Virus genome (UHGV): UHGV-0289908
Reading direction: 5' to 3' (one strand)
Source of the DNA: a virus
Length of the DNA stretch: 64,000 nucleotides
The stretch's first letter is position 1. Each line of letters begins with the position of its first letter. A program made the translations under genes and the position numbers. Shown here in pieces: positions 4,613-21,248 of the stretch. The notes beneath the pieces were generated by a model, which was given only the letters and a program-made list of their open reading frames with translations, was not told the DNA's origin and did not search any database.

Positions 4613-4661
4613 TAAAATATTATAAAACACCCTTGACTCGGGGTGTTTTTTGTTATATAAT
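4613..4661 (+). promoter_or_regulatory. Sigma-A-type promoter P1: 15-mer TAAAATATTATAAAA (4613-4627), -35 TTGACT (4633-4638), 17-nt spacer, -10 TATAAT (4656-4661)
   Basis: Exact consensus hexamers with a 17-nt spacer, read directly from the sequence. Lies upstream of the sigma-factor and DNA-polymerase operon. Confidence 0.75.
4626..4650 (+). terminator. Rho-independent terminator of the upstream RecJ-like gene, overlapping P1 (the -35 box lies in the loop)
   Basis: Stem AACACCC (4626-4632) pairs with GGGTGTT (4642-4648). Loop TTGACTCGG. T-run to 4650. Confidence 0.55.
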
Positions 4662-4693
4662 GTCGTTGTAAACAAAAGAAGGGAGGAGTCGAA

Positions 4694-5317
4694 ATGACAC
4701 CACAGGAAGAATACGAAAAGATATTAAAGATACGTAACAAGGAAATAAGTTTTGACGAAGCAGTCAAGAGTTACAAAGGAATGCTAGTTAAAAAGTCAAA
4801 ATCCTACCATATAGCAGGGCAAGATAAAGACGACCTTTATTCTTGCTCAATGTACTCCTTATACAAGGCGGTCAACACCTTTGATGGTAGCGGTAGTTTT
4901 ATAAAATACTTGGGATATATTATCGACAACGATTTTAAAAGCATGATTCGAAAGTCTTGGGGAGAAAGAAATGGTGATATTCACTATACTAATTGTGCTC
5001 GTCTAAACAAGCCTGTTGCAGCACATGTTGATGGGAACTTTGTTGAAATGGGGGAGCTGCTCCCAACCAATCTTTCATTAGATTGTTTGGATTACAACCT
5101 GCTAATTCCAATTGTTAAAGAAGCGATGATTGCCCTACCCCCAGAGGTTCAGAAATTACTCCAACTACATCTTTTTGAAGAATGCAATCAACAAGAAATT
5201 GCTAAAGAGTTTGGAGTGTTGCAGAGTACAATTTCAAGACGCATTCAACGGTCTCTTCTCTTACTACAAAAAGAGCTAGAGAAGCTAGACATCACCAACC
5301 CATATCCAAAACAATAA
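4694..5317 (+). CDS. Phage-encoded sigma-70-family RNA polymerase sigma factor
   Basis: Region-2-like segment DDLYSCSMYSLYKAVNTFDGSGSFIKYLGYIIDNDFKSMIRK. Region-4 HTH LPPEVQKLLQLHLFEECNQQEIAKEFGVLQSTISRRIQRSL. RBS GGGAGGAG before ATG 4694. Confidence 0.7.
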   Translation: MTPQEEYEKILKIRNKEISFDEAVKSYKGMLVKKSKSYHIAGQDKDDLYSCSMYSLYKAVNTFDGSGSFIKYLGYIIDNDFKSMIRKSWGERNGDIHYTNCARLNKPVAAHVDGNFVEMGELLPTNLSLDCLDYNLLIPIVKEAMIALPPEVQKLLQLHLFEECNQQEIAKEFGVLQSTISRRIQRSLLLLQKELEKLDITNPYPKQ

Positions 5318-5331
5318 AATGGAGGTTTTAT

Positions 5332-8300
5332 ATGGATAAATTTATTAACTTACACACGCATGACGAATATTCAAACATTCGATTAAAAGACTCTACAAAT
5401 AGAATTCCAGTTATGGTGGACTATGTTGCCAATCAACTAGGACAGAAAGGATTCGCCATTACAAACCACGACTGTTTAAGCAACCATGTTAAATATATCA
5501 ATACAGTCAAAGACATGAAGAAAGAGGGTAAAATCCCACAAGACTTTAAATACATACTCGGTAACGAGATTTACTTATTGAGTGAAGAAGAAATGAACCA
5601 TCAATTAGAAAACAAATTGTACGTTCCTTTCTACCACTTTATACTTATTGCAAAAGACGAGATTGGACATTCGCAATTAAGAGAGTTAAGCTCTAGGGCA
5701 TGGAAACGAGGATTTAGCTATCGTGGTATGGATAGAGTTCCAACCTTTTACTCAGATATTGAGGAGGTTGTTGGTGGCAACCGAGGACATTTAGTTGCTT
5801 CAACAGCCTGCCTTGGGAGTAGATTTGCTCGTCTAGCATTGCAGTTCGCTCGTATGGAATTGTGCTTGGAGCAAGGGTACTACAATGACTCGTTTAAAAA
5901 AGAGCAGGTTCATGTAGGAGAGCAAGAAGCAAAACAAGCCATTGACGAGTTAAGAGGTCAAATTCATGATTTCCTTACTTGGTGTACATGGGCTTTTGAG
6001 GGCGATTTCTACATTGAAATGCAACCAAGTGAACAGGAAGACCAACTTTTATACAATAAAGTCGCTCAAAGGATAGCCATGGCATATAACATCCCAGTTA
6101 TCATTACAACAGACGCACATTACCTCAATGTAGAGGATAAGGCTATTCACAAGGCATTCCTTAAATCAGACGAAGATGACGAAACATTTGCTTCTGGAGG
6201 ACGTGAAACTGACGACTTCTATGACTCTACTTATTTCATGAGTAGTGAAGAGATACATACAAGACTTTCATATCTTGACCCCGAGTTTGTTGAAGAATGT
6301 ATTAGTAACACATATGCTATTTATAAATCGGTGGAGCAATACGACCTTCACATTAATCAAGAAGTTCCAGAGATACCTTTACCACCTGTTGTTTCATGGT
6401 TCTACAACGAAGAAATTGTTTCTTTAATCACAAAAGAGTTATTCCCTAATATTATAGCCATGAGAGAGTCGGACAATGAATACGATAGATATTTATATAC
6501 ACTTATCATAAAGGGGATGAAGGAACGAATTGCTCCAGAAGAATACTTAATGACATTGGTAAGGGTAGACCTAGAATGTAAAGAGGTAATAGGGATTTCT
6601 AAGGCGAAACAAACAACCATGAGTAGTTATTTCATCACCTTACAGAAGTTCGTAGACATTATTTGGGATGAAGCTGAATCTTTTGTCGGTGTTTCTCGTG
6701 GTTCGGCAGCAGGGTTTGAGATTAACTATCTGTTACAGATTGTTCAAATCAACCCGTTAAAACAACCAGTCGAAATGCCACATTGGAGGTTCATTAGTGC
6801 AGAGCGTCCAGACTTCCCCGATGTGGATTTAGATATTAGCTCCCATAAGCGAGACATTGCCTTCCGTAAGGTGCAAGAATACTACCAATCATTTGGTGGA
6901 GAAGTTGTCCGAGTTGGAACATTTAAAACAGAATCTTCTAAGAGTGCTATTCAAACAGCTTGTCGAGGAATTGGAGTATCGAGCGATATTGGAACTTATT
7001 TATCGTCACTCATCCCTATCACTCGTGGGTCTGTACACAGTTTGAAAGATACATACTATGGCAATCCAGACAAAGACTTAAAGCCAGTAACGGAATTTGT
7101 TAACCAAGTAAATCAATATGAAGGATTACTTGAATTAGCCATTGGTATTGAAGATATTATCTCTGGTCGAGGGGTTCACCCATGTGGAGTATGCTGTTTC
7201 ACAGACATTAACAAACATACTGCAATCATGAAAGCTCCTAATGGGGAATTAATCACCCAATACGACTTAGGAGATAACGAATATACAGGAAGTATCAAGA
7301 TGGACTTCTTAAACACTAAAACCATGAGTATGTTGCAAATTGCGTCAGAATTACTTATTGAAGCAGGGCACATGGAGTGGCAGGGTACTTTACGAGAAAC
7401 ATATAATAAGTATCTTCATCCAGACGTTCGTGATTATGACAACCCACACTATTATGAAGCATTAAATAAGGGAGAGTTAATAAGTGCGTTCCAATTCGAT
7501 TCGCAGGTTGGTAGTGTTGCATTGTCTTCTATTCGACCAACATCTCTATTAGAGGTTGCCAATGCCAACTCGTTAATGCGACTTATGAGCGACCATGAGG
7601 AACAACCTATGGATAAATATATCCGCTATAAAAACGACATTAACGAATGGTACAAAGACATGGAAGACTATGGATTAACAGAAGATGAGATTATGTTAGT
7701 TCGTAAACACCTTGACAAAGACAACGGAGTATGCTCTTCACAAGAGGGTATGATGCTTTTAACTATGGATGAGAAGGTAGCAAACTTTGACGTAGTTCAG
7801 TCAAATAAACTTCGAAAAGGTTGTGCGAAGAAAGTTCCTAAGTTAATTCAACAAGCCAAAGAGATGGTATTTGAACAAGGCATTGCCAACGGAGCGAGCG
7901 ACAAACTTTTACACTACATTTGGGACGAACAGATTAGCATGCAGTTAGGGTACAGTTTCTCGATTCTGCATACCATTGGATACTCACACATCTTATTACA
8001 ACAGTTAGAGTTAATTACTAACTACCCTCCTATCTATTGGAATACCGCAGTGCTACTCCTTGAATCTGGAGCTATCACTCAAGATACTGAGTCAGAGGAA
8101 GATAACAAGAAAGAGAAGACGACAAACTATGGGGTTGTAGCTTCTGCGATTTCAGATTTACAATTCCACGGGGTAACTATTGACCTACCTCACATTAATA
8201 AAGCAGAGGTGGGGTTCACGCCTCACGAAGAATCGAACTCAATCATGTTTGGTTTCAAAGGAGTCTCTACAATCAACAATGACGTAGCGGCTACTATTAT

Positions 8301-9447
8301 TGCAAACCGTCCATATGCGAGCTTACAAGACTTCCATGAGCGAATGGTAGAGGTTAAGCGAGAAGTAACATTATCAACAGGTAAGAAACAGATGAAGTCT
8401 TTAGTGTCATCTACGCAGACCATCAACTTAATCAAAGCAGGGGCATTCGATGACCTAGAGCAACGACCTCGTGCTGAGATTTTAGAAGATTACCTACGTC
8501 TGTTAAACCCACCTAAGAAGACCATGACGACAGCCAACATTAATGCTGTCATGGAAATGGGAATCATCCCTTCTGAATACCAACCTATGTTGTCAATGTT
8601 CAACTTCAAGAAATACATTCAAACACTTCCAAAGTATCAAGATGAATCATCTAAGTCAATCGTATGGCATGTCATTAACTGTGGTGACCATGAAATGACT
8701 GAATACTCAAACAATTTCTTCTTCAATAACTTTGGTGAATTACAAGAAGGTCGTGACTACTTCTATGATGAAGAGGGATATGTAAACGTAGCCTTAAAAA
8801 CAACTCGTAAAGGGTCGTTTGAGGATGTATTAAAACAGAAGACTAAGCCATTTACACAGTGGTTAAACAGTCCTGCTTGTATTGATACATACAATTACAT
8901 TGTCTTTGAGGATATCAAGCGTAACCTCATGGACGGCAATCAATCAAGATGGGAAATGGAATCAATGAACTACTACTATTCTGAGCATGAATTAGCAGGC
9001 ATTGATAAAGAACGCTATGGAATTGTGGACTTCAATGAACTTCCAGAAGAGCCAGTTATTACAGGATTCTCTCAATGGAGAGGTCAAGAGATTCCTCGTT
9101 TCGAATTGTCTCGTATCTGTGGTACAGTGCTCGACCGTGACAAAAACAAACACACGGTGTCTCTATTAACAGAATATGGGGTAGTTACACTTAAATTCCA
9201 TAGTGGACAATTCAGTTTCTATGATAAGACATTGTCTATGAATGACGCTGAAACAGGTAAGAAAGTAACCGTGGAGGAGTCTTGGTTCAAACGAGGACAG
9301 CTTTTGGTGTGTGTGGGCTATCGCAGAGGAAACCAATTCAGACCGAAACGCTACTCTAACTCAATCTATCAACACGCATTATGCAAGATTACACAATTAC
9401 ATGAAGATGGAACAGTATCTTACCAAGACGAACGTGCACAAATTTAA
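5332..9447 (+). CDS. DNA polymerase III alpha-like (family C, DnaE-type) replicative polymerase with an N-terminal PHP domain
   Basis: Begins MDKFINLHTHDEYSNIRL, the PHP H-x-H motif. At 1371 aa the size fits DnaE-like enzymes. RBS GGAGG before ATG 5332. Resembles the DnaE-like polymerase of SPbeta-type phages (from memory). Confidence 0.8.
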   Translation: MDKFINLHTHDEYSNIRLKDSTNRIPVMVDYVANQLGQKGFAITNHDCLSNHVKYINTVKDMKKEGKIPQDFKYILGNEIYLLSEEEMNHQLENKLYVPFYHFILIAKDEIGHSQLRELSSRAWKRGFSYRGMDRVPTFYSDIEEVVGGNRGHLVASTACLGSRFARLALQFARMELCLEQGYYNDSFKKEQVHVGEQEAKQAIDELRGQIHDFLTWCTWAFEGDFYIEMQPSEQEDQLLYNKVAQRIAMAYNIPVIITTDAHYLNVEDKAIHKAFLKSDEDDETFASGGRETDDFYDSTYFMSSEEIHTRLSYLDPEFVEECISNTYAIYKSVEQYDLHINQEVPEIPLPPVVSWFYNEEIVSLITKELFPNIIAMRESDNEYDRYLYTLIIKGMKERIAPEEYLMTLVRVDLECKEVIGISKAKQTTMSSYFITLQKFVDIIWDEAESFVGVSRGSAAGFEINYLLQIVQINPLKQPVEMPHWRFISAERPDFPDVDLDISSHKRDIAFRKVQEYYQSFGGEVVRVGTFKTESSKSAIQTACRGIGVSSDIGTYLSSLIPITRGSVHSLKDTYYGNPDKDLKPVTEFVNQVNQYEGLLELAIGIEDIISGRGVHPCGVCCFTDINKHTAIMKAPNGELITQYDLGDNEYTGSIKMDFLNTKTMSMLQIASELLIEAGHMEWQGTLRETYNKYLHPDVRDYDNPHYYEALNKGELISAFQFDSQVGSVALSSIRPTSLLEVANANSLMRLMSDHEEQPMDKYIRYKNDINEWYKDMEDYGLTEDEIMLVRKHLDKDNGVCSSQEGMMLLTMDEKVANFDVVQSNKLRKGCAKKVPKLIQQAKEMVFEQGIANGASDKLLHYIWDEQISMQLGYSFSILHTIGYSHILLQQLELITNYPPIYWNTAVLLLESGAITQDTESEEDNKKEKTTNYGVVASAISDLQFHGVTIDLPHINKAEVGFTPHEESNSIMFGFKGVSTINNDVAATIIANRPYASLQDFHERMVEVKREVTLSTGKKQMKSLVSSTQTINLIKAGAFDDLEQRPRAEILEDYLRLLNPPKKTMTTANINAVMEMGIIPSEYQPMLSMFNFKKYIQTLPKYQDESSKSIVWHVINCGDHEMTEYSNNFFFNNFGELQEGRDYFYDEEGYVNVALKTTRKGSFEDVLKQKTKPFTQWLNSPACIDTYNYIVFEDIKRNLMDGNQSRWEMESMNYYYSEHELAGIDKERYGIVDFNELPEEPVITGFSQWRGQEIPRFELSRICGTVLDRDKNKHTVSLLTEYGVVTLKFHSGQFSFYDKTLSMNDAETGKKVTVEESWFKRGQLLVCVGYRRGNQFRPKRYSNSIYQHALCKITQLHEDGTVSYQDERAQI

Positions 9448-9450
9448 TGC

Positions 9451-9499
9451 TAAAATATTATAAAACCTATTGACAGTGTTCGACACTGCATGATATAAT
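9451..9499 (+). promoter_or_regulatory. Sigma-A-type promoter P2: 15-mer (9451-9465), -35 TTGACA (9470-9475), 18-nt spacer, extended -10 TGaTATAAT (9491-9499)
   Basis: Read directly from the sequence. Same architecture as P1, P3 and P4. Confidence 0.7.
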
Positions 9500-9501
9500 T
9501 A

Positions 9502-9534
9502 CCCTGTGATTAAACGTCACAGGGTTTTTATTTT
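9502..9534 (+). terminator. Rho-independent terminator immediately downstream of the P2 -10 box
   Basis: Stem CCCTGTGA (9502-9509) pairs with TCACAGGG (9517-9524). 7-nt loop. TTTTTATTTT follows, 9525-9534. Confidence 0.7.
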
Positions 9535-9552
9535 ACTACAAGGAGCGATTGT

Positions 9553-9972
9553 ATGTTAAGAGATGTAGCTTATGAAGAACATTCAATACTGAAGCACATT
9601 CGTGCAGACAAGATTGTTACAGACAATGTTAGAGTGCGTGGAACAGTCGAGCTAATAAAGACAGAGTATGACGGATATTCTAAAAAGAAAATGGTCTACG
9701 TTACAGACTTGAGTCTATGTAGTTGGGACAATACTCCAAAGTGCGATTTACCAGACATTAAGCTAAGAGTGAGTTATTCCGACAACTTTAAAAAGAATCG
9801 TGTAGAAAGCGGAGACCATATCGCTTTCACATGTAGAATTCAAATTGAACATCCTCAACAAACGTGTTACGATGGGCTAAGACCTAATCATTGCAACAAT
9901 ATTACAAAACTTATTGTTGCATATTATGAGCAATATCAGAATCTAAAGGAGGATGTAGATAATGAACAATAG
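9553..9972 (+). CDS. Hypothetical protein, possibly an OB-fold nucleic-acid binder. Translationally coupled to the helicase gene.
   Basis: ATG 9553 after AGGAGCG. Overlaps the ATG of the next gene at 9962. No recognisable catalytic motif. Confidence 0.4.
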   Translation: MLRDVAYEEHSILKHIRADKIVTDNVRVRGTVELIKTEYDGYSKKKMVYVTDLSLCSWDNTPKCDLPDIKLRVSYSDNFKKNRVESGDHIAFTCRIQIEHPQQTCYDGLRPNHCNNITKLIVAYYEQYQNLKEDVDNEQ

Positions 9973-12349
9973 AGAGTTTACCTGCATGGTGGAATTCAAT
10001 CGACAATTCTATCCTAAAGACAACAAAAAGATTATGGATGGAGATTGGGGGATTGTTACTGTAAAAGTTCACGAGATTGAGGTTGATGGTGAAATGCTCG
10101 ACTATAATAAACTGGACTTTAACAACAAGCATAAAGATTATGCTTTGCATATTGACTCTCGATTTGGCACTATCACTATCAAGGGAAACATGTGCGAAAT
10201 GCACAAGGATACGAGATACAAGGTTTGTCTTAAAGAGGTCTACGACAGTAAAAACGAGCGTTGGGGATATGACATCAAGTTTATTCAAGAGCGATATTCA
10301 TTTGATACAGTAGAGAAACAAAGAAAGTTCCTATTGCGTATCCTAACCGAGCGTCAAGTGGACAACATCTTCGCCACATTCGAGAGCCCTATGGAGATTC
10401 TTGAGAATAACGACGTAGAAGCATTAACGAATGTCAAAGGAATTGGTGGAAAGACGGCTCAAGACATCCTGTCTAAATTCATGGCTACCAAAGATTTTGG
10501 AAAAGCGTTCGTAGAGCTTAGTGGGTATGGATTAACAAATGCTATGATTTACAAACTTGTTGACCGCTACGGTAGTCCAGACATTGTGGTAAGTAAGGTG
10601 AAGAACAATCCATACATTCTCGCACACGAGGTTGATGGTATCGGATTCTTAAAAGCCGACGCTATTGCGTTGTCAGTGGGATATGACCCAAATTCGCCTA
10701 AACGTTGTTCGGCATATTTACAGTACTTCTTCGATAATATGGTTCAAGAGGGTCATTCATATGTAACAGGAGAGCATATGATGGATGCCATCTACGACGC
10801 TCTAGGGAACACATTTAATCATGGAAGTATTGGTTTGGCACTACGTTGGCTAACTGATAAAGGCAAGCTATGGTTCAATGAAGACCGCACCGTATTTGCT
10901 TCACGCAAGCATTACGAAACCGAGCGTCTTGTTGCCTTAAATATCATTCGACTGGTCAATGCCGAAAACAACTTCTACTTTGATAATTGGGAGGAGAAGA
11001 TAGCACAGGTTGAAGCAGAACAGGGATGGCAGTTCACAGACGAACAATATACTTCTATCCAATCAACCCTTGAGCACAATGTAGTAGTTACCGCAGGATA
11101 TGGAGGAACAGGGAAATCAAGTTCTGTTTCTGGAATGTTGAGAGTCCTTGAGGGATATACTTTTGCTCAGTGTGCTCTTTCGGGGAAAGCGTCTGTAAAC
11201 ATGATGCACATTACGGGAGCAGATGGGTACACAATCCACCGATTGCTTGGATACAATCCTCAGACTGGGTGGAAGCACAGTGAGAGCAATCCATTAGAGT
11301 ATGACATCATTATCCTAGACGAGTTCTCAATGGTTGACGCTGAACTGTTTGCTCGATTGCTATGTGCCATCAAAGACGGGGCAAAGTTAATTATGTTAGG
11401 CGATACAGGACAGTTAACCAACATTGGAATTGGAAATGTCATGCACGACCTAATTGAGTCTGGATATGTTTGGACTAACCAACTTACACAGATTCACCGA
11501 CAGGCAGCCAAGTCCGCTATCATCACAGAGTCAATCAAACTTCGTAATTCAGAACATATTGTTAAGGCAGGATTTGAAGGACGAGTGATACTTGGTGAAT
11601 TGCAAGACCTTGAGATTATTGGATATAAGGAACATGAGAACCGCAAGACTGGCGAGAATGGCAAGGGTGTTCAACTCATTATGGACGAATACTTACGCAT
11701 TCGACCTAATGTAAGCAACATCATGGACATCTCAGTAATTCTCCCAACAAACTATCGAGGGACATGCACTTACAAGTTGAACCTGCTGATTCAAGCTGTG
11801 GAGATTAATCACAAGAAAGGCTTAAACGTTCGAGGTCTTGAGATTGGTGGAGACCACCCATACACATTATACATAGGTGACAAGGTCATCAATACAAAGA
11901 ACAACTATCAGTCGTTCTACAGAGAATACTTAGGGGAAGACGAATTTGGTAACCCAATGTATGACAAAGTTAAACGTGAGATTTATAATGGAAACATGGG
12001 AATTGTAACAGCGATTGACCATCAAAACCGAGAAATCGAAGTTGACTTTGAGCGTATAGGAAAGGTTACAATTACAGCGGACGATTTGAGCAATATCCAC
12101 CTTGGGTATGCGATTAGTGTCCATAAGTCGCAGGGGGCAACAATTCCTTATGTTATTGTAGGGGTGGATTACACTCACTTTAAAATGCTGTCTCGTGAGT
12201 TAGTATACACAGCAATTACCCGAGCCAAAAAACATTGTGTCTTGGTAGCAGAAACACGAGCATTGCGTCGAGCAACCACTACAACAAACATTATCTCAAA
12301 ACAGACTTTCCTTCCATTCTTCTTGGATGGGTCATTGCCAATTTTGTGA
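9962..12349 (+). CDS. RecD2-like superfamily-1 DNA helicase with an N-terminal HhH-containing domain
   Basis: Walker A VTAGYGGTGKSS. Walker B or DExx IIILDEFSMVD. HhH motif VKGIGGKTAQDIL. SF1 motifs LGDTGQL, YAISVHKSQGA and VYTAITRAK. Confidence 0.8.
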   Translation: MNNREFTCMVEFNRQFYPKDNKKIMDGDWGIVTVKVHEIEVDGEMLDYNKLDFNNKHKDYALHIDSRFGTITIKGNMCEMHKDTRYKVCLKEVYDSKNERWGYDIKFIQERYSFDTVEKQRKFLLRILTERQVDNIFATFESPMEILENNDVEALTNVKGIGGKTAQDILSKFMATKDFGKAFVELSGYGLTNAMIYKLVDRYGSPDIVVSKVKNNPYILAHEVDGIGFLKADAIALSVGYDPNSPKRCSAYLQYFFDNMVQEGHSYVTGEHMMDAIYDALGNTFNHGSIGLALRWLTDKGKLWFNEDRTVFASRKHYETERLVALNIIRLVNAENNFYFDNWEEKIAQVEAEQGWQFTDEQYTSIQSTLEHNVVVTAGYGGTGKSSSVSGMLRVLEGYTFAQCALSGKASVNMMHITGADGYTIHRLLGYNPQTGWKHSESNPLEYDIIILDEFSMVDAELFARLLCAIKDGAKLIMLGDTGQLTNIGIGNVMHDLIESGYVWTNQLTQIHRQAAKSAIITESIKLRNSEHIVKAGFEGRVILGELQDLEIIGYKEHENRKTGENGKGVQLIMDEYLRIRPNVSNIMDISVILPTNYRGTCTYKLNLLIQAVEINHKKGLNVRGLEIGGDHPYTLYIGDKVINTKNNYQSFYREYLGEDEFGNPMYDKVKREIYNGNMGIVTAIDHQNREIEVDFERIGKVTITADDLSNIHLGYAISVHKSQGATIPYVIVGVDYTHFKMLSRELVYTAITRAKKHCVLVAETRALRRATTTTNIISKQTFLPFFLDGSLPIL

Positions 12350-12397
12350 TAAAATATTATAAAATGGATTGACATTTTGCGACATTTTTGATATAAT
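12350..12397 (+). promoter_or_regulatory. Sigma-A-type promoter P3: 15-mer (12350-12364), -35 TTGACA (12369-12374), 17-nt spacer, extended -10 TGaTATAAT (12389-12397)
   Basis: Read directly from the sequence. Confidence 0.7.
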
Positions 12398-12424
12398 ATA
12401 GGTATGTTGAAAGGAGGTGACAAC

Positions 12425-12604
12425 ATGTCACAGAAGAGAGAGAAAAAGAAACATGAATATGACTTTCTATGCTTTTGTGGAGAGGTGTCAACACACCAAC
12501 TCCCTATAGAGCATGGGCTTAGCGGGACAAAGGCAAAGGGATTCGTTAGGTGTCCGCATTGCGACCGTGAGACATACTTGAAGATATACTTAGACTTAAA
12601 ATAG
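12425..12604 (+). CDS. Small zinc-ribbon protein (C-x-C ... C-x2-C)
   Basis: RBS AGGAGG 7 nt before ATG 12425 (the track start at 12404 is less likely). Cys pairs LCFCGE and CPHCDRE. Confidence 0.4.
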   Translation: MSQKREKKKHEYDFLCFCGEVSTHQLPIEHGLSGTKAKGFVRCPHCDRETYLKIYLDLK

Positions 12605-12615
12605 GGGGAAACAAT

Positions 12616-12798
12616 ATGGTAAAATTTATTACATATGCACTACAACTGGTTATCATTCTTATTTTACTTAAGGTGTGTTTCAATCTTGTGGTGATGGTAA
12701 TGGTGGGATTTATTAAAGCCATACCTGCTCTTGTTCTTGCGGTGCTTGCCTTGGTACTTTTAGATAAGATTTTTGACAACGAAGAAGAAGAAGAATAG
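12616..12798 (+). CDS. Small, very hydrophobic membrane protein (two predicted TM helices) with an acidic EEEEE C-terminal tail
   Basis: RBS GGGGGA before ATG 12616. 59 aa, mostly L/V/I. Ends in a (GAA)5 microsatellite at 12781-12796. Confidence 0.45.
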   Translation: MVKFITYALQLVIILILLKVCFNLVVMVMVGFIKAIPALVLAVLALVLLDKIFDNEEEEE

Positions 12799-12810
12799 GA
12801 GACGATTTAC

Positions 12811-13980
12811 ATGGCATTAGTTATTAAACGAGATGGAAATTTAACAGGGTTTAACAAGAATAAGATTAAGGTGGCAATTTTAAAAGCAATGGAGTATGGT
12901 AGCGGCATTGTCAATAAAGAGATTGCCGAAACTGTTGCTCAAGAAGCTGAAAATACATACAATGTTGATGGAAAGATGACAGTAAGCATTGCAGAGATTG
13001 AAGCATTCGTGTTTCAACAATTAGTCCAACACGGACATGAATTAACCGCACGTGCCTATGAAGGATACCGTTCTGTTCAAGCCTTCAAACGTGAGACAAA
13101 CACAACGGATGAATCAATCTTGGGGCTAATTCGTGGAACAAATGAAGAAGCTATCAATGAGAACTCAAACAAAAATGCTTACATTGCTTCTACTCAACGA
13201 GACCTTGTAGCAGGAGAGGTTTCAAAAGACCTTGCACGTAGACACTTAATTCCTGCTCATATTGTGCAAGCTCATGATGAAGGTGTCATTCACTATCACG
13301 ACCTTGATTATGCGTTACAACAAATTCCAAACTGTAACTTAGTTAACTTAAAAGATATGTTGGATAATGGCACTGTGATTAATGGAAAACGTGTTGACTC
13401 TCCAAATTCATTCTTAACTGCTTGTACTATTGCTACTCAAATTATGGCACAGGTTGCAAGTGGACAATTCGGAGGACAAACAAGCTCATTATCGCACTTA
13501 GCTCCTTACGTTCGTAAATCAAGAGAGCGTTACTATGACTTATTAAAGGACACAATCAACTCTATTGACGAGTTAAATAACACAGTTGATAAGTTAGTTA
13601 AGAAGGAGATTGCTTCTGGAGTACAGACAATCCAATATCAAATACAGACGCTCGCAACATCTAATGGTCAGTCACCTTTCGTTTCTTTATTCATGTATTT
13701 AAACGAAGATGAAGAGTATATCGAAGAGATGGCTTTAATCATTGAAGAAGTATTAAAGCAACGCATCTTAGGGGTGAAGAATGAGCAAGGAGTATACATT
13801 AGTCCTGCATTCCCTAAATTGCTTTACGTTCTTGATGAGAACAATACATACGAAGGTAGCGAATACTACTACTTAACTAAATTAGCAGTTGAATGTGTGT
13901 CTAAACGCATTGTTCCAGACTTCATCAGTGCTAAAAAGATGAAAGAACATTATGAAGGACAAGTGTTCCCTTGTATGGGT
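12811..13980 (+). CDS. nrdD: Anaerobic ribonucleoside-triphosphate reductase NrdD, exon 1 (ATP-cone and N-terminal catalytic half)
   Basis: Begins MALVIKRDGNLTGFNKNKIKVAIL, an ATP-cone. Class III RNR-like throughout. The exon ends ...EGQVFPCMG at a T, the nucleotide expected at a group I 5' splice site. An in-frame stop follows 3 codons into the intron. Confidence 0.8.
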
Positions 13981-14948
13981 AAGTAAAACTGCCCATGTAA
14001 AACTCGGTGAACCTAGAAATCTAGGGTGTATAATCAGCGATTAGTAGCATTAGGAAATGAGTGCTAATGATTATGCTAACAGGGGAAGTCGCATAGATTA
14101 TCCTGTGCTAAGTCTCAACATGCAGTATAGGAGGAGATGTCATGTATACTGTATATAAAGCCACCAATGTAAATAATCATAAAATCTATATTGGGGCAAC
14201 TAACAATTTAAAACGAAGAATAAATGAACACAAAAACCACGCACGCAAAGATAAGAGTAGATTCCACGGTGCAATTTTAAGGTATGGAATTGAAAGTTTT
14301 GTTTTTGAAATACTTTTACAATGTGAAAACAAAGAAGAAATGTTTGAAAAAGAAAAAGAGATGATTGCCCTTTTTGACTCTACGAACCCAGAGATTGGCT
14401 ATAACGAGACCGAGGGAGGTAGAGGAGGTCAAACTCACGACATACACGGAGAGAGAAATCCTATGCACGGCAAACTTTACACCGAAGAGGAGAGGAAAGC
14501 TCTATCGGACAAATTAAAAGGTCGAAAGATAACTGCCGAACATAGGCACAAAATAAGCTCAAGTCTCAAAGGAAAAGAAAAGAGTGAGCAACACAGGTTG
14601 AATTTATCAAAGGCTCTTAAAGGGAATCTTCCATCCAACTCCCGCAAAATCTCTGTGATACATACGATAACTGGAGAAATATTAACCTTTAACTCAGAAG
14701 CGGAAATGGAACGAGCGTTAAAATGTGGTCGTGCAACGGTTAAAAGTGGGCGAATTACCAAGAATGGATATAAATTGTATGTTGAGAAAAGTCAAGAGAC
14801 TATCGAAAGCATAGCATAAGAGAAAAACTTATGTGAAGAAGCGAGTAGAGTACATTTGAGGTGGAATTCCTCATTTGGAAGTGCCGAGGTCTTGTGTGTT
14901 GGTAATAGACATGCAAGACATGATATAGTCCAACCTCGCAAGAGGTTG
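13981..14948 (+). mobile_element. Group I-type self-splicing intron interrupting nrdD. It carries a homing endonuclease ORF.
   Basis: Inferred from the split nrdD reading frame. Exon 2 resumes at 14949 (CRSFLSPWKDENG...) directly after a G at 14948, as expected for a 3' splice site. The ~970-nt insert has an internal GIY-YIG ORF with its own RBS. The T4 nrdD (sunY) intron is the established precedent. Confidence 0.7.
14142..14819 (+). CDS. GIY-YIG homing endonuclease, intron-encoded
   Basis: N-terminal KIYIGATNNLKRRINEHKN (GIY-x10-YIG-type motif). Central NUMOD-like repeats (RKALSDKLKGRKITAEHRHKISSSLKGKEKSEQHRLNLSKALKGN). C-terminal DNA-binding tail. RBS AGGAGGAG before ATG 14142. Confidence 0.8.
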   Translation: MYTVYKATNVNNHKIYIGATNNLKRRINEHKNHARKDKSRFHGAILRYGIESFVFEILLQCENKEEMFEKEKEMIALFDSTNPEIGYNETEGGRGGQTHDIHGERNPMHGKLYTEEERKALSDKLKGRKITAEHRHKISSSLKGKEKSEQHRLNLSKALKGNLPSNSRKISVIHTITGEILTFNSEAEMERALKCGRATVKSGRITKNGYKLYVEKSQETIESIA

Positions 14949-15908
14949 TGTAGAAGTTTTTTATCTCCATGGAAAGATGAGAACGGAAACTACAAGTGGT
15001 ATGGTCGTCAGAATTTAGGAGTGGTCACTTTAAACCTACCAGATGTAGCATTAACTGCAAAAGGTGACTTAGACATGTTCTGGAACATTCTTGACCGCAG
15101 ATTAGAATTATGTAAAGAAGCATTAATGGTGCGAGTAGACTTATTGCGTGGAACACCATCTGATATTAGTCCAATCCACTGGCAATATGGAGCTGTAGCA
15201 CGACTTAAAAAAGGTGAAACTATTGACTCTATTATTGATAGTGGAGCTTGTTCTATTAGTTTAGGATACATTGGTCTTTGCGAAACTGTACGTGCTTTAA
15301 TTGGACAGTCACATACTACTCCAGAGGGTGAGAAGTTGGCAGTTGCAATTATGAAACGATTACGAGAATCAACAGACCGATGGAAACAAGAAACTGGCTT
15401 AGGATTTGGGCTTTACGGGACACCATCTGAATCTTTAACTTACCGTTTTGCTACTAAACTTCAACAACGTCATGGTATCATTGATGGAATCACTGACAAG
15501 TTATACTTAACAAACAGCTACCATGTTCACGTTTGCGAAGAGATTGACGCTTTCTCTAAAATGGCATTCGAGTCACAATTCCAAAAGATTTCATCTGGTG
15601 GAACTATTTCATATATTGAAGTGCCTAACATGAAGCACAATTTAGAAGCTCTACACCGAACAGTAGAATTCATGTATGAGAACATGCAATACTGTGAAAT
15701 CAATACTAAATCAGACTATTGCCAAGAGTGTGGATACGATGGAGAGATTTTAATTGATGACGAACTTGAATGGTATTGTCCAAACTGCGGTAACAGAGAC
15801 AAGAGCAAGATGAACGTTGTCCGCAGGACTTGTGGCTATTTAGGGGAGAACTTCTTCAACAAAGGTCGCACTCAAGAAATCAAAGAGCGAGTGTTACACT
15901 TAAACTAA
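14949..15908 (+). CDS. nrdD: NrdD exon 2, including the C-terminal glycyl-radical domain
   Basis: The frame of track ORF 14856..15908 continues CRSFLSPWKDENGNYKWYGRQNLGVVTLNLP... and ends ...VVRRTCGYLGENFFNKGRTQEIKERV, the glycyl-radical RxCGY motif of class III RNR. Joined, exons 1 and 2 give about 710 aa. Confidence 0.8.
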   Translation, partial: CRSFLSPWKDENGNYKWYGRQNLGVVTLNLPDVALTAKGDLDMFWNILDRRLELCKEALMVRVDLLRGTPSDISPIHWQYGAVARLKKGETIDSIIDSGACSISLGYIGLCETVRALIGQSHTTPEGEKLAVAIMKRLRESTDRWKQETGLGFGLYGTPSESLTYRFATKLQQRHGIIDGITDKLYLTNSYHVHVCEEIDAFSKMAFESQFQKISSGGTISYIEVPNMKHNLEALHRTVEFMYENMQYCEINTKSDYCQECGYDGEILIDDELEWYCPNCGNRDKSKMNVVRRTCGYLGENFFNKGRTQEIKERVLHLN

Positions 15909-15927
15909 TAATAAAGGGAGATATGAA

Positions 15928-16290
15928 ATGGCAGTTTACGAGTTAAAAGATTTTAAATATGAGGTGAAGGGGTCTGGCAATAGCTTTAAGCCCCATGCCC
16001 CTGTGCTAAATTGGTTTTTTATTCATGGTAATAAAGGGATAGAAACTTTTAATGGAATACCATCTGGGGTTTATAGCAAACTTGTTGACTTCATGAATAA
16101 TTGCGAACAATTCTCTCTGTCGCTTCATCAATGCGAGGGGACAACCACAGACTTTATTATTGTCAAAGGACGTGCATTCAATGGCATTCGTGAAATGAAG
16201 CAATGGATTAAAACTTGTGAGAACAAGTATCCTACTTACAAATATCTAATTGCGGATTACGAAACAGGACAGATTGAGCGTTTTATGTAA
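15928..16290 (+). CDS. Hypothetical protein lying between nrdD and nrdG
   Basis: RBS AAGGGAG before ATG 15928. No motif recognised. Confidence 0.4.
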   Translation: MAVYELKDFKYEVKGSGNSFKPHAPVLNWFFIHGNKGIETFNGIPSGVYSKLVDFMNNCEQFSLSLHQCEGTTTDFIIVKGRAFNGIREMKQWIKTCENKYPTYKYLIADYETGQIERFM

Positions 16291-16341
16291 TTTACAACTG
16301 GGGCTATGTGCCCCTTTTGCCATATCTATAGGAGGAATACT

Positions 16342-16845
16342 ATGAATTATCAGTTAGTGAAGTACAACAATATCGGCAATGGAATCGGCATCAGAACAAG
16401 TTTGTTCGTGACAGGATGTTCACATGGTTGTAAAGGATGTTTCAATCAGTCTATTGCTAACAAAAACGCAGGAGAGCCATTCACAGATGACGTTAAAACA
16501 GCAATTTTACAGTCATTAGAGCCTTCTTATATTGCAGGGTTATCTTTATTAGGAGGTGAGCCCATGGTGTCATACAACGCTCCAGAGTTAGCCAAACTAT
16601 GCCGTGAAGTGCGAGAGCTACATCCCACAAAGAATATATGGGTATATAGTGGCTTTACCTATGAGCAGATTATTGCAGACCCAATCAAACTAGAGTTACT
16701 GGAACAGTGCGATGTTCTAGTTGATGGGAAGTTTGAACAAAACCTATACTCTCCTCTGCTACGATTTAGAGGGAGTAGCAATCAGAGAATCATTGACATA
16801 AAGAAATCCCTAGAATCTGGTGCTGTGACACTATTCTTGGAATAA
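16342..16845 (+). CDS. nrdG: Anaerobic RNR-activating protein NrdG (radical SAM)
   Basis: RBS AGGAGG then ATG 16342 (MNYQLVKY...). Radical-SAM cluster motif GCSHGCKGCFN. Size and position next to nrdD fit NrdG. Confidence 0.8.
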   Translation: MNYQLVKYNNIGNGIGIRTSLFVTGCSHGCKGCFNQSIANKNAGEPFTDDVKTAILQSLEPSYIAGLSLLGGEPMVSYNAPELAKLCREVRELHPTKNIWVYSGFTYEQIIADPIKLELLEQCDVLVDGKFEQNLYSPLLRFRGSSNQRIIDIKKSLESGAVTLFLE

Positions 16846-16849
16846 TTGT

Positions 16850-16898
16850 TAAAATATTATAAAACACTGTTGACTTTATTGTCGAACGGTGATATAAT
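16850..16898 (+). promoter_or_regulatory. Sigma-A-type promoter P4: 15-mer (16850-16864), -35 TTGACT (16870-16875), 17-nt spacer, extended -10 TGaTATAAT (16890-16898)
   Basis: Read directly from the sequence. Confidence 0.7.
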
Positions 16899-16951: not shown

Positions 16952-17425
16952 ATGACAACTAAATTATACTTACGTGGATTTGAGGAAGTTCCAACTCAAT
17001 TTAAACAAGTAGAGAATGAAACAACCATCCTCCCAGTTCGAGGAGACGCACGCAGTGCAGGATACGATTTCTATTCCAAAGAGACCGTAACAATTCCTCC
17101 ACATCAATCTCATTTATTCTGGACAGATGTGTGTGCATACATGCAAGACAATGAGGTATTGTTAATTCATGTACGCTCATCCATTGGTGTAAAGAAAGGG
17201 TTAATGCTTAAAAACACAACAGGGGTGATTGACTCTTCATACTATGCAAATCCAAGCAACTATGGAAACATTGGAATCTGCTTATACAACAATTCTGACA
17301 AACCAGTTGTGATTGAAGCACAAGAACGCATTGCTCAAGGGGTATTCCAAAACTATTTAGTGACAGACGAAGACTCTACATTACACATGGAACGTTCTGG
17401 AGGATTCGGTTCATCTAACCGATAA
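16952..17425 (+). CDS. dut: dUTP diphosphatase (trimeric dUTPase)
   Basis: Conserved dUTPase motifs AGYDFYS, RSSIGVKKG, GVIDSSYY and C-terminal RSGGFGSS. Confidence 0.85.
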   Translation: MTTKLYLRGFEEVPTQFKQVENETTILPVRGDARSAGYDFYSKETVTIPPHQSHLFWTDVCAYMQDNEVLLIHVRSSIGVKKGLMLKNTTGVIDSSYYANPSNYGNIGICLYNNSDKPVVIEAQERIAQGVFQNYLVTDEDSTLHMERSGGFGSSNR

Positions 17426-17476
17426 GCAATATTGACAACTAAATAATTTTCCAAACAATCGAAAGGAGATATGGAA

Positions 17477-18211
17477 ATGGTTAGCGTAACGACATTATGT
17501 GGCACACTACTTACTGTGTGTGCTACCATGAATAGTGTGCCTACAGAAGAAGTGGTTGCACAAAGTACATATGATACTGTAGATTCCCAACAGATTACCG
17601 AGTGGTTGGAGCAGGAGACTAATAAGTCTGTTTACTCCGACACTCGAAGTGTACTAAAGCCAGAGGTGGTAGAATACCTTGTTGGCTATCAAGCTCATGT
17701 TGAAGAAAAGGAGCGTCTTCGATTAGAAGAAATTGAACGTCAACAACAAGAGGAACTAGAGAGACAACGACTGGCAGAAGAAGCCCGACAACGAGAATTA
17801 GCGTCTTATACCAATACAGGGTATCGTCAGACGTATTACTCAGTTGCCGAGGGAGAAACAAACTTAGGAGCAGGCTATAATTATCAAAGTAAAGAAATCA
17901 CTGTTATTGACAATGTAATGAATTTTTACGACAAAGATTTCGGTTATCTCCCAATTTATGCCATTAATATTAATGAAGTGATGGAAAGCGGATTAAACGC
18001 AAAAGGAACACCCAATCTTTATGGAAGCGTTATTCAAATCAAGGACGAGAATGGGAATATTAGTCAAGGTATCGTCCTAGACGCATGTGGAGCTTGCTCC
18101 CGAGCCAATAAGATTGACCTCTGGGTTTATAATAACAATCAAGTCCATGACGTGTCAAATCTGGATTTTAAATATGTCCGTAAGGGATGGGATGATTATG
18201 TCGTTTATTAA
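17477..18211 (+). CDS. Secreted coiled-coil protein with a C-terminal 3D/RlpA-like (double-psi beta-barrel) cell-wall-binding or lytic domain
   Basis: Hydrophobic N-terminus, E/R/Q-rich coiled coil. C-terminal NLYGSVIQIKDENGNISQGIVLDACGACSRANKIDLWV resembles the 3D domain of YocH/YuiC-like proteins. The likely start is ATG 17477, 8 nt after AGGAG (the track start is 17471). Confidence 0.5.
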   Translation: MVSVTTLCGTLLTVCATMNSVPTEEVVAQSTYDTVDSQQITEWLEQETNKSVYSDTRSVLKPEVVEYLVGYQAHVEEKERLRLEEIERQQQEELERQRLAEEARQRELASYTNTGYRQTYYSVAEGETNLGAGYNYQSKEITVIDNVMNFYDKDFGYLPIYAININEVMESGLNAKGTPNLYGSVIQIKDENGNISQGIVLDACGACSRANKIDLWVYNNNQVHDVSNLDFKYVRKGWDDYVVY

Positions 18212-18241
18212 AATTTATAGTAAATAATTGTCAAATAGAGA

Positions 18242-19105: not shown

Positions 19106-20107
19106 CTAAACTTTTTGAACGTATTTACTGTTCATTGAAATCCACCCTGCACCAGACTTTAATTGTCCCAGTCCATTAGATTCCTTAACGATTGTATATA
19201 CATCGTTTTTATAAACAGTTCCCACAGCTTTAGAATCGAAGCTGTCTGATTGACGAATTGTTAAAGCGTCTGTTGTGATTTTGACCTTAAATGAGGTTGG
19301 TGTTGCTTCCACTTTTTCAAGGTCAAAATCCCATAACCATGAAACAATATCAGACACTAAAATCTTGTTTCCATTGATTTTAGCTACTTCATAAGTTGAC
19401 CCATTCACCCAAGATGGGATAGCCTTACCTTGTGTACTTCCGTCTGTTGGAGCGTAGTGAGTTGCTTGAGCCTTAACTTTCACCTTATCTCCCACCTTGA
19501 AGCTAGATGTGTTCGGTTGGCTTGGGGCAGGTTGTGATACCACAACTTTTGTTAACCCTAAGTATTCGATGATTGACTCTGCAACAGCTTCTGCATATTG
19601 TTGTTGCCCTTTGTCAGAAGTGATGATTTCATAGTCCGATACAGTATCCATGAATCCACCCTCTACTAAGATTGCAGTTGCGTTACATCCTAATACTGCG
19701 AACTGTGCTTGCTTAACCCCACGATTTCGCAGACCTGTTTTTGATGCTAATTTTGGTGCTACAATGCTTGCTATCTTTTTATCTTCAGCAGTGCCATATG
19801 TATGCCAGTAAACCTCTGTACCTGTACCGCCACCCGCATTTTCATGGATGCTGACAAATAAATCTGGTTTATAGCTATTGCAACGTCGTACTCGTTCTGC
19901 TAATGAAATGTCTGTTTTCCCACTTGGGTCATCAGTACGATGGATAGTTACATTGTATGCAGAAAGAATTGAAGTAATTTTGCGTACAACAGAGTCATTC
20001 ATAGTCCACTCTTTCACAATCCCTCTTGAACCGTTCATTGTTTGTTTCCCCGCAGTATTGAATCCATGCCCTGCATCTAACACTAAAATTTTGTTTGCCA
20101 TGAACAT
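19106..20107 (-). CDS. N-acetylmuramoyl-L-alanine amidase endolysin (Amidase_3 catalytic domain plus C-terminal SH3-like cell-wall-binding repeats)
   Basis: ILVLDAGHGFNTAGKQ ... DLFVSIHENAGGG ... AILVEGGFMD are Amidase_3 hallmarks. C-terminal repeats GSTYEVAKINGNKILV and GTVYKNDVYTIVKESNGLGQLKSGAGWISMN are SH3b-like. Confidence 0.85.
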   Translation of the reverse strand: MFMANKILVLDAGHGFNTAGKQTMNGSRGIVKEWTMNDSVVRKITSILSAYNVTIHRTDDPSGKTDISLAERVRRCNSYKPDLFVSIHENAGGGTGTEVYWHTYGTAEDKKIASIVAPKLASKTGLRNRGVKQAQFAVLGCNATAILVEGGFMDTVSDYEIITSDKGQQQYAEAVAESIIEYLGLTKVVVSQPAPSQPNTSSFKVGDKVKVKAQATHYAPTDGSTQGKAIPSWVNGSTYEVAKINGNKILVSDIVSWLWDFDLEKVEATPTSFKVKITTDALTIRQSDSFDSKAVGTVYKNDVYTIVKESNGLGQLKSGAGWISMNSKYVQKV

Positions 20108-20166: not shown

Positions 20167-21207
20167 TTACAGGTCTTTTAGACCTTTTTGTTCTACCTGT
20201 TTTATTCCCTCGTCAGAGAAGAATTGTCCTAATACTTCGTCTTTAGGACGGTCGTCATAGGTGCTGACTAAATCTATTGAAGCCCAACCGACAATCTCTT
20301 TAACCACTTCCGCAGGAATCCCCGCTCGCAATAGTTCGGTAGTAAAGTTATGTCTCAGACAGTGGAAATAAAAATCAACGTTAAGCATTTTCCCAAATGT
20401 CTTTGCGTATGAATCTAATGTTGTTTCTTGCATAGGAACGAACTCTCCGTTTCTACGAACCACAAACATCTCATCCACGTCTTCTGGAATACCTAACGCT
20501 TTACGCTCTTCTGCCCATAAGTCAAAATACTTTTTAAACTTATTTGCTAAGACATAACGCTCCAATAACTTCCCTTGTTGTCCTCTTCCTTTAGTTTTCA
20601 TTTTCTCGGGAGTCATATATAAAGCCCCACCAAAGCGTAAGTTTTCATCTTTGATGTAAGACATTTTAAATCTTAACAACTCCGCCTTGCGTGCCCCACT
20701 AGCCCAAGCAAGAGCCAATACACAGGCTTTCTGATACTGCTGTTTAGACACTAAAAAGTCTAGTAGTTTTTCAACCTGCTCGTCCTCTAGCACTGTCTTC
20801 TCTCGCACTGGTGCTAAAACAGGATTCGGAACTTTATTCACAATATTCTTGAAGTTCTCCCACTTCTCTTCTTCATCCAACATATCCTCGATATATTTAG
20901 ACAGACTACTTAACGAAGATTTTAATGCTCGAATGCGAGCAGGAGATAAACCTTCCTTCATTAAGTGTCCTTGAAATCCCAAAATGTCTTTTTTCTTAAT
21001 GTCACAAAAGTCTTTATTCTTACGATGGTTCATTAACCATACAAAAAAGATGTTAAGGTTTGAGCGAGTAACCTTTGCAGATTTCTCACTATGGTCTACT
21101 GTTAGGTAGTAATCCATAAACTCATCAATTAACTCTAGGTTGTCTGGATTGATTTTCGCAATATCCTCTGCTGTGGTAGAAAATGTTTTCTTTGTCTTTC
21201 GTGCCAC
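20167..21207 (-). CDS. Tyrosine recombinase or integrase (phage integrase family)
   Basis: C-terminal catalytic signature HCLRHNFTTELLRAGIPAEVVKEIVGWASIDLVSTYDD (the R, H-x2-R, H and Y residues). Probable GTG start at 21207, preceded by AAAGGGGAAAC. The track extends to 21246 in the same frame. Confidence 0.8.
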   Translation of the reverse strand: MARKTKKTFSTTAEDIAKINPDNLELIDEFMDYYLTVDHSEKSAKVTRSNLNIFFVWLMNHRKNKDFCDIKKKDILGFQGHLMKEGLSPARIRALKSSLSSLSKYIEDMLDEEEKWENFKNIVNKVPNPVLAPVREKTVLEDEQVEKLLDFLVSKQQYQKACVLALAWASGARKAELLRFKMSYIKDENLRFGGALYMTPEKMKTKGRGQQGKLLERYVLANKFKKYFDLWAEERKALGIPEDVDEMFVVRRNGEFVPMQETTLDSYAKTFGKMLNVDFYFHCLRHNFTTELLRAGIPAEVVKEIVGWASIDLVSTYDDRPKDEVLGQFFSDEGIKQVEQKGLKDL

Positions 21208-21248
21208 TTTGTTTCCCCTTTCAAATTGGCAAGAGGTGTATAACACCT

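Follow-up and report, generated by a model that had tools for sequence, protein, structure and literature searches.

In the 64-kb stretch of phage DNA analysed here (hereafter the window; positions to its left carry negative numbers and positions to its right lie beyond its right end), a 15-mer composed only of A and T, TAAAATATTATAAAA, is repeated without change in front of four promoters, P1 to P4. A preliminary description of this DNA weighed two functions for the 15-mer, a binding site for the C-terminal domain of the RNA polymerase alpha subunit (alpha-CTD) and an operator for a phage regulator. Comparisons with other phages speak for the second function, since action as an upstream promoter (UP) element alone leaves lineage-specific versions of the motif and its promoter-less copies unexplained. 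We consider it probable, at roughly 60%, that the 15-mer is a repressor operator of the class represented by SPBRE in phage SPβ and Phi3TRE in phage phi3T, sited where a UP element would lie in the early promoters of an SPβ-like gut phage. This reading is favoured because the motif exists in lineage versions, because some copies lack a promoter, and because both its geometry and its sequence match the boxes of the MrpR and SroF repressors.

Exact and mismatch searches of the window confirmed the four positions given in the preliminary description and the identity of the copies at 15 of 15 bases. All copies lie on the + strand, 0-12 nt past the preceding stop codon. The number expected by chance was 0 (100 dinucleotide-preserving shuffles), and no copies with one or two mismatches were found elsewhere in the window. 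The promoter reported after each copy was likewise confirmed, with a -35 hexamer of TTGACA or TTGACT and a spacer of 17-18 nt. No other intergenic + strand promoter in the 64 kb reaches a score of 11/12, and three of the four (P2, P3 and P4) have an extended TG. The boxes and core promoters are as follows.

4613..4627, + strand: box copy 1 (P1), 12 nt past the RecJ-like stop codon and 5 nt before the -35
4633..4661, + strand: P1 core promoter, TTGACT-17-TATAAT, box gap 5 nt
9451..9465, + strand: box copy 2 (P2), 3 nt past the polymerase stop codon and 4 nt before the -35
9470..9499, + strand: P2 core promoter, TTGACA-18-TGaTATAAT, box gap 4 nt
12350..12364, + strand: box copy 3 (P3), abutting the helicase stop codon and 4 nt before the -35
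12369..12397, + strand: P3 core promoter, TTGACA-17-TGaTATAAT, box gap 4 nt
16850..16864, + strand: box copy 4 (P4), 4 nt past the nrdG stop codon and 5 nt before the -35
16870..16898, + strand: P4 core promoter, TTGACT-17-TGaTATAAT, box gap 5 nt

Of the ~155-kb genome, ~93 kb is readable, namely the window itself, the ~9 kb that the source contig adds on the left and the ~10 kb that contigs of relatives add on the right. The leftward stretch holds three additional boxes, each preceding a TTGAC promoter at a gap of 4-6 nt. Two are exact copies, at about -4719 (before the YorF homologue) and about -5602, and the third, at about -8063, is a conserved variant with two mismatches, CAAAATAATATAAAA, 5' of a TTGACA promoter. 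The source genome therefore has at least seven boxes (four in the window and at least three on the left), and the set of four operons first proposed, whose promoters are real, extends beyond those four and beyond the window. The fuller form of the box is G-N-(T/C)-AAAATATTATAAAA, the G two bases 5' of the motif being invariant in 7/7 source-genome sites. On the right, only late genes were found, and an exact 14-mer, AAAATATTATAAAA, lies ~7 kb past the window end, promoter-less and oriented against the late genes. Within one genome the flanks of the boxes are unrelated between sites, so that the identity of the 15-mers is not explained by recent copying. The right-hand 14-mer sits in one arm of a ~27-nt inverted repeat, CACTCTACAATTCTTTTAAAAATATTA, beside a hairpin; this repeat brackets a late gene for a 322-aa protein (L286:1860-1900 and L286:2898-2952, ~7-8 kb right of the window).

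The motif is under strong purifying selection. Among orthologous promoters of strains and lineages with RecJ proteins 88-100% identical, 1 of 75 columns varied in the motif (at position 1), as compared to 43 of 125 in the 25 nt before it (Fisher P = 2.5e-9). The following 10 nt had 5 variable columns of 50, and the linkers and spacers of these promoters change freely. The TAAAATATTATAAAA version is common to the window lineage and the relatives L141 and L149. Diverged relatives have versions of their own (AATAATATTATAAAA, AATAATTTTGTAAAATA, TAAAATAATTTGG), each lineage's version being constant over its sites and one version including an internal G.

L143 and L150 (RecJ ~73% identical, sigma factor 37%): AATAATATTATAAAA, 7-8 sites
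L151 (RecJ 55% identical): TAAATAATTTTGTAAAATA, 11 sites
L152 (Clostridium botulinum-associated, no sigma gene, RecJ 51% identical): TAAAATAATTTGG, in the spacers of TTGACA..TAATAT promoters or before a ribosome-binding site (RBS)

In the early regions of six lineages, all copies are intergenic and on the coding strand, the late-region copy on the right flank being the sole exception. Promoter-less copies occur in L143, L150 and L151 at shared syntenic positions, which are of three types: at the YorF/Sak4 junction, before a hairpin; directly past the RecJ stop codon, before a terminator; and in the 22-nt gap between the sigma and polymerase genes, directly before the RBS. Copies before an RBS were seen in L143, L150, L152, SPβ and the Clostridium phage c-st. 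Sites that are kept in place without a promoter, together with concerted change, are expected of the site of a genome-specific protein and not of a UP element. Both the sequence and the position of the box (5' of the -35, in the spacer or before the RBS) evolve by lineage, and immunity groups could be predicted in a simple manner from the sequences of lineage-specific boxes.

According to an exact-protein look-up, the window belongs to a ~155-kb human gut metagenome contig, and the source is an uncultured SPβ-like phage. Its gene order matches that of SPβ (YorF, AAA_24 (Sak4), YorH, DnaB, primase, RecJ-like protein, PolIII-alpha), the window polymerase is 40% identical to SPβ YorL, and its late genes match the YomN, YomU, YonB, YonD and YonG families. 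Megablast found no close DNA relatives among GenBank phages, and a helicase search found no relatives in IMG/VR.

SPβ carries a 15-bp element, SPBRE, at ten early promoter regions. It is bound by MrpR (YopR), as determined by chromatin affinity purification with sequencing (ChAP-seq) and electrophoretic mobility shift assay (EMSA), and MrpR represses PaimR and PyosX approximately five-fold (PMC10516654). The SPβ sites that we extracted have the form (C)AAA(T/A)AATATGTATA(T)A and in every case point the same way as the gene. They lie over the spacer and -10 at yorE, yorZ, yosX and yonP, directly 5' of the -35 at aimR (gap 3 nt), and directly before the RBS at yopM, yopV and yonX. But for a one-base gap, AAAATAT-TATAAAA of the window is the aimR SPBRE, AAAATATGTATAAAA (14/14 bases; p ~0.012 in composition-preserving shuffles), and the L143 form is the second yonX site (16/16 bases; p ~0.005). 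Both elements are thus A/T-rich repeats at early promoters that follow the same orientation rule, and both target the yorE/yorF operon. They differ in length by one base and in placement, most SPβ copies lying on the spacer and -10 or before an RBS, whereas the early-region copies of the window lineage all lie 5' of the -35.

The MrpR homologue of phi3T is 29.5% identical to that of SPβ. A de novo search of phi3T yielded a box, AGAATAAAAATAAAATTA, with 11-15 copies in 49 kb, which stands 3-5 nt 5' of the -35 at the aimR, yopM-position, yorE and yorZ promoters and is the reverse complement of the published 26-bp SroF box. SroF binds the 26-bp box as a monomer and reads 24 bp of it, including two consecutive A-tracts; the phi3T box gives SroF-dependent repression of a reporter, and the SPβ and phi3T repressors do not cross-act (10.1101/2025.11.27.690993). 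Since the published SroF box is the phi3T box found 5' of the -35, this geometry has been validated in SPβ-like phages, and the asymmetry of the box follows from monomer binding. Like Phi3TRE, the window box is A/T-rich and asymmetric, contains two A-tracts, occurs in many copies co-oriented with transcription, and stands just 5' of the -35 of early sigma-A promoters, including that of the yorE/yorF replication operon, with a gap of 4-6 nt as compared to 3-5 nt in phi3T. The two differ in box sequence (AGAATAAAAATAAAATTA versus TAAAATATTATAAAA) and in host, Bacillus for phi3T and a Clostridia-type gut bacterium for the window phage. Furthermore, phi3T, unlike the window phage, has no phage sigma factor, and its cognate repressor and arbitrium module have been identified, whereas neither was seen in the readable genome of the window phage.

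The Clostridium phage c-st has YopQ/YopR homologues and at least 25 co-oriented copies of a box of its own, before TTGAC or an RBS, and box type visibly co-varies with MrpR type in SPβ, phi3T and c-st. A comparable arrangement is known from the stoperators of mycobacteriophage L5 and cluster A phages, which are short asymmetric repressor sites present in many copies and in one orientation relative to transcription. They lie in short intergenic gaps just past stop codons, some at promoters and some not. The likeness is one of logic only; the repressor family and the phage family differ.

From these comparisons we infer that a repressor binds the box in this phage, what kind of protein it is, and how it blocks transcription. 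The box would be an asymmetric A-tract operator read by a single molecule of an integrase-fold master repressor (MrpR, YopR or SroF), with one box directly 5' of the -35 of every early sigma-A promoter, namely those of the replication, sigma/polymerase, helicase, nrd and dut operons. In a lysogen, repressor bound at about -60 to -36 would occupy DNA that is needed by alpha-CTD and probably by sigma region 4, and this occlusion would silence the near-consensus early promoters together. With the repressor gone, the A-tract DNA would be free and would probably function as a UP element that renders the promoters very strong. The extra boxes of the relatives, before terminators and RBSs, would act as roadblocks or additional binding sites.

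SPβ-type repression, with a monomeric integrase-fold repressor and long, asymmetric, scattered boxes, has so far been worked out only in Bacillus phages, and for a family of large, uncultured phages of the human gut the box is likely to supply a map of the early regulon. It is a more speculative and, in our estimate, rather improbable proposal that MrpR/SroF-type silencing operates in gut Clostridia phages with the operator fused to a working UP element, repressor and alpha-CTD competing for it at promoters that are also wired to Spo0A, or else that the repressor is one unrelated to MrpR.

Several observations weigh against an operator of the MrpR class. No MrpR/SroF homologue (Pfam PF22822 and PF22823) was detected in the readable ~93 kb of the ~155-kb genome by tblastn or by a hidden Markov model (HMM) of the family, which is a difference from SPβ. 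The closest complete relative from gut Clostridia, Enterocloster phage CB457P2, has no clear box and no clear MrpR (HMM 17 bits). The likeness to SPBRE is between A/T-only sequences and includes a 1-nt gap, and its statistics are modest and post hoc. Two further points speak for a UP element: the early copies of the window lineage all lie 4-6 nt from a consensus -35 with their A4 tracts on the alpha-CTD subsites, and the 15-mer is found directly driving the promoters of tRNAs and of the rplJ leader in unrelated gut Clostridia, which is compatible with ordinary promoter-upstream DNA.

The search for a cognate repressor was extended to other SPβ proteins and to databases. The family HMM recovered the positive controls (phi3T, 9e-76; c-st, 1e-36). 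Tblastn with SPβ YopR, YopP, YopQ, YonR, YopS, YopO, AimR and YosL gave no match in the window or in its relatives, and a search for MrpR homologues returned solely Bacillus and Chengkuizengella proteins and no gut-phage protein. The surroundings of highly divergent MrpR homologues (L153-L155) yielded no clean repeat. The repressor genes of SPβ and c-st are located 17-18 kb upstream of yorE/yorF, a distance beyond the ~9 kb read leftward.

The only family-HMM match in the readable genome, weak (15.5 bits) and at the level of the fold, was the open reading frame (ORF) 20167-21246. It was rejected as an MrpR, as the catalytic R, HxxR, W and Y are intact and it matches XerC, XerD and XerA; by its sequence it looks like an active recombinase of the Xer/integrase type. 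This XerC/D-like gene (20167-21246, - strand) sits between the late genes and the lysis amidase gene 19106-20107, and its product could serve as an integrase or as a dimer resolvase. Integration of SPβ itself relies on a serine recombinase, whereas the window phage carries a tyrosine recombinase.

The alternative that survives best, although we hold it to be unlikely, is that the box is a pure UP element, an optimised alpha-CTD site that boosts host RNA polymerase, with its invariance due to selection for strength or to copying of a promoter cassette. UP elements, such as those of rrnB P1 and the T4 early promoters, span -38 to -59, are A/T-rich with phased A-tracts, and give very strong promoters. 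The 15-mer shares their position, composition and phased A-tracts, and all of its window copies precede near-consensus promoters. With a 5-nt gap, it spans -55..-41 and has AAAA at -44..-41 and -54..-51, 10 bp apart, the register shifting by 1-2 bp at other sites; the UP-element position named in the preliminary description is therefore correct. The positions of alpha-CTD subsites are known from the E. coli SELEX (systematic evolution of ligands by exponential enrichment) UP consensus and from Helmann's A-tract positions in B. subtilis, and the A4 tracts fit both. The box DNA is thus UP-like, and in its free state it probably assists the polymerase.

However, UP-likeness alone does not explain the selection, the lineage versions, or the likeness to SPβ and phi3T. 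As a rule, UP elements are degenerate in sequence; at a distance from any promoter they serve no function, and the copies in a genome do not change together. In contrast, the motif of the relatives is non-degenerate, is conserved at promoter-less sites before hairpins or RBSs, and is altered in concert at all sites of a lineage, in one case with an internal G, while in other family members the homologous element lies in the spacer or before the RBS and not at the UP position. It was rightly argued at the outset that a UP element does not demand an identity as strict as 15 of 15 bases.

The 15-mer followed by TTGAC was also scanned in IMG/VR and GTDB genomes, where unrelated genomes gave single-copy matches only. 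In keeping with a UP element, a good -10 accompanied 32 of 56 matches when the gap was 4-5 nt and 21 of 64 when it was 3 or 6 nt (P = 0.01). In unrelated viral contigs, however, the 15-mer was at background (9 matches versus 6 for a sister A/T 15-mer), and a control with a 17-mer variant gave at least 120 single matches. As the control counts are similar, we regard occurrences in unrelated genomes as background for A/T-rich DNA and rejected them as support for a generic UP element.

Less probable still is that the box is read by some other trans-acting factor, be it a phage repressor outside the MrpR family, an early-to-middle switch protein, or a nucleoid-associated or global regulator of the host, or that it acts at the RNA level, as a signal in the 3' ends of transcripts that read through. 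The failure to find an MrpR homologue in the readable genome is consistent with this explanation, as is the presence in all motif-bearing gut lineages of a sigma factor gene beside P1, which SPβ does not have; yet L152 and SPβ carry related boxes without that sigma factor, and a host factor would not yield lineage-specific versions. Several copies stand just before hairpins and hence are present in upstream transcripts, as an RNA signal would require, but Rfam gave no match. The match to the MrpR/SroF boxes in sequence and geometry is the simplest account. By eye, the motif showed no convincing match to CodY, Fur or PerR boxes.

We give very little credence to the box being a by-product, whether the A-tract arm of a bidirectional terminator, a divergent antisense -10, or a recombination-promoting sequence at module boundaries: its last AAAA pairs with the T-run of the P1 hairpin, the promoter-less copies of relatives and the right-flank copy abut GC-rich hairpins, its reverse complement holds a perfect TATAAT (with a minus-strand TCGACA-18-TATAAT at P4), and gene content between boxes differs among strains (HNH, GIY-YIG and intein insertions), but P0, P3 and P4 have no adjacent hairpin, a minus-strand -35 partner exists only at P4, flanks are not shared between sites and give no sign of recombinational copying, and neither a terminator tail nor a -10 box needs 14-15 invariant bases.

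A second element was found inside the promoters themselves. The preliminary description had noted a cGACA common to the P2 and P3 spacers; it is real, but it belongs to an element different from the box, the 0A box of the sporulation regulator Spo0A (TGTCGAA/TTCGACA), which has been described for promoters of phi29 and Nf and for Clostridia (PMC2731898, PMC3485338).

9479..9485, - strand: exact 0A box in the P2 spacer, TTCGACA on + and TGTCGAA on -
12378..12384: near-0A box in the P3 spacer, TGCGACA, one mismatch
16880..16886, + strand: exact 0A box in the P4 spacer, TGTCGAA

The orthologous P3 site is an exact TTCGACA in L141 and L143. Over the whole window, the 0A 7-mer is not enriched (7 observed versus 7.7 expected), two of the seven being in the spacers of P1-P4. 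In the promoter cores of six lineages, 11 exact 0A boxes in both orientations were found in 33 cores versus 0.13 expected, an enrichment whose P value is inflated, as orthologous promoter cores are not independent. The relatives in this observation were L141, L143, L149, L150 and L151, and the boxes lie in the 17-18 nt spacers. As in phi29 and Nf, exact 0A boxes are thus present inside early phage promoter cores (PMC2731898); unlike in those phages, the predicted 0A boxes here accompany a box of the lysogeny type, and the phage is large and SPβ-like. Their sequence suggests that host sporulation controls the early genes of the phage, tying early transcription to sporulation as in phi29. Their location in promoter cores points to a host that forms spores and that adds a second layer of control of its own. 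A spore-forming host would possibly mean that the phage is carried in spores in the gut.

Each of the four promoters drives a set of genes. P1 is followed by the gene for a sigma-70-family factor (4694-5317) and the PolIII-alpha gene (5332-9447), P2 by a 139-aa ORF (9553-9972) and a RecD2-type helicase gene (9962-12349), P3 by two small ORFs and then the split nrdD/nrdG cluster (12404-16845), and P4 by dut (16952-17425) and further ORFs. The sigma factor, encoded between RecJ and the polymerase, has regions 2 and 4 and is weakly SigK/E/H-like. Its gene is present in all gut lineages and absent from SPβ, c-st and L152, and its targets are presumably the late promoters.

Terminators and promoters are interlocked at P1 (4624-4649) and P2 (9501-9535).

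4624..4649, + strand: P1 hairpin, AAAACACCC..GGGTGTTTT with a T-run, -13.8 kcal/mol, z -3.7
9501..9535, + strand: intrinsic terminator just past the P2 -10, -17 kcal/mol, z -5.8

The P1 hairpin probably terminates the primase/RecJ operon that precedes it. The terminal four A's of box 1 form pairs with its T-run, and the P1 -35 hexamer falls inside its loop. It is kept in all lineages, with changes in loop and stem. The P2 terminator begins 2 nt past the -10 box, and RNA started at P2 lacks its 5' arm (-0.9 versus -17 kcal/mol), so that only read-through RNA folds it.

Strains L011, L012, L143, L149 and L150 differ from the window in insertions of homing-endonuclease, HNH, LAGLIDADG or intein sequences in DnaB, in the polymerase and in the YorF/Sak4 gap, with the boxes and promoters unmoved. 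In the window, nrdD is in two ORFs (12811-13986 and 14856-15908) split by a GIY-YIG/NUMOD3 endonuclease gene (14142-14819), whereas it is uninterrupted in the relatives L141, L143, L150 and L151. Rfam identified no group I intron at the split nrdD and gave no match anywhere in the window.

Auxiliary genes lie left of the window, upstream of the replication module (L282:1-3472, L284:153-3514). They encode TerD, a P-type cation ATPase, a NAMPT-type nicotinamide phosphoribosyltransferase and a protein resembling phosphoribosyl pyrophosphate (PRPP) synthetase. A conserved ~340-nt leader (L282:3530-3816, window coordinates about -5550 to -5270) separates the promoter at L282:3480 from a 182-aa gene; it contains several complementary stretches rich in GC and could be a structured leader or a small RNA. 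Where the coding strand switches in the window, two near-consensus promoter-like sites were found on the minus strand (18129-18234; TTGACA-18-TGnTATTAT and TTGACA-16-TTTAAT), and both aim back into a 246-aa + strand ORF (17471-18211).

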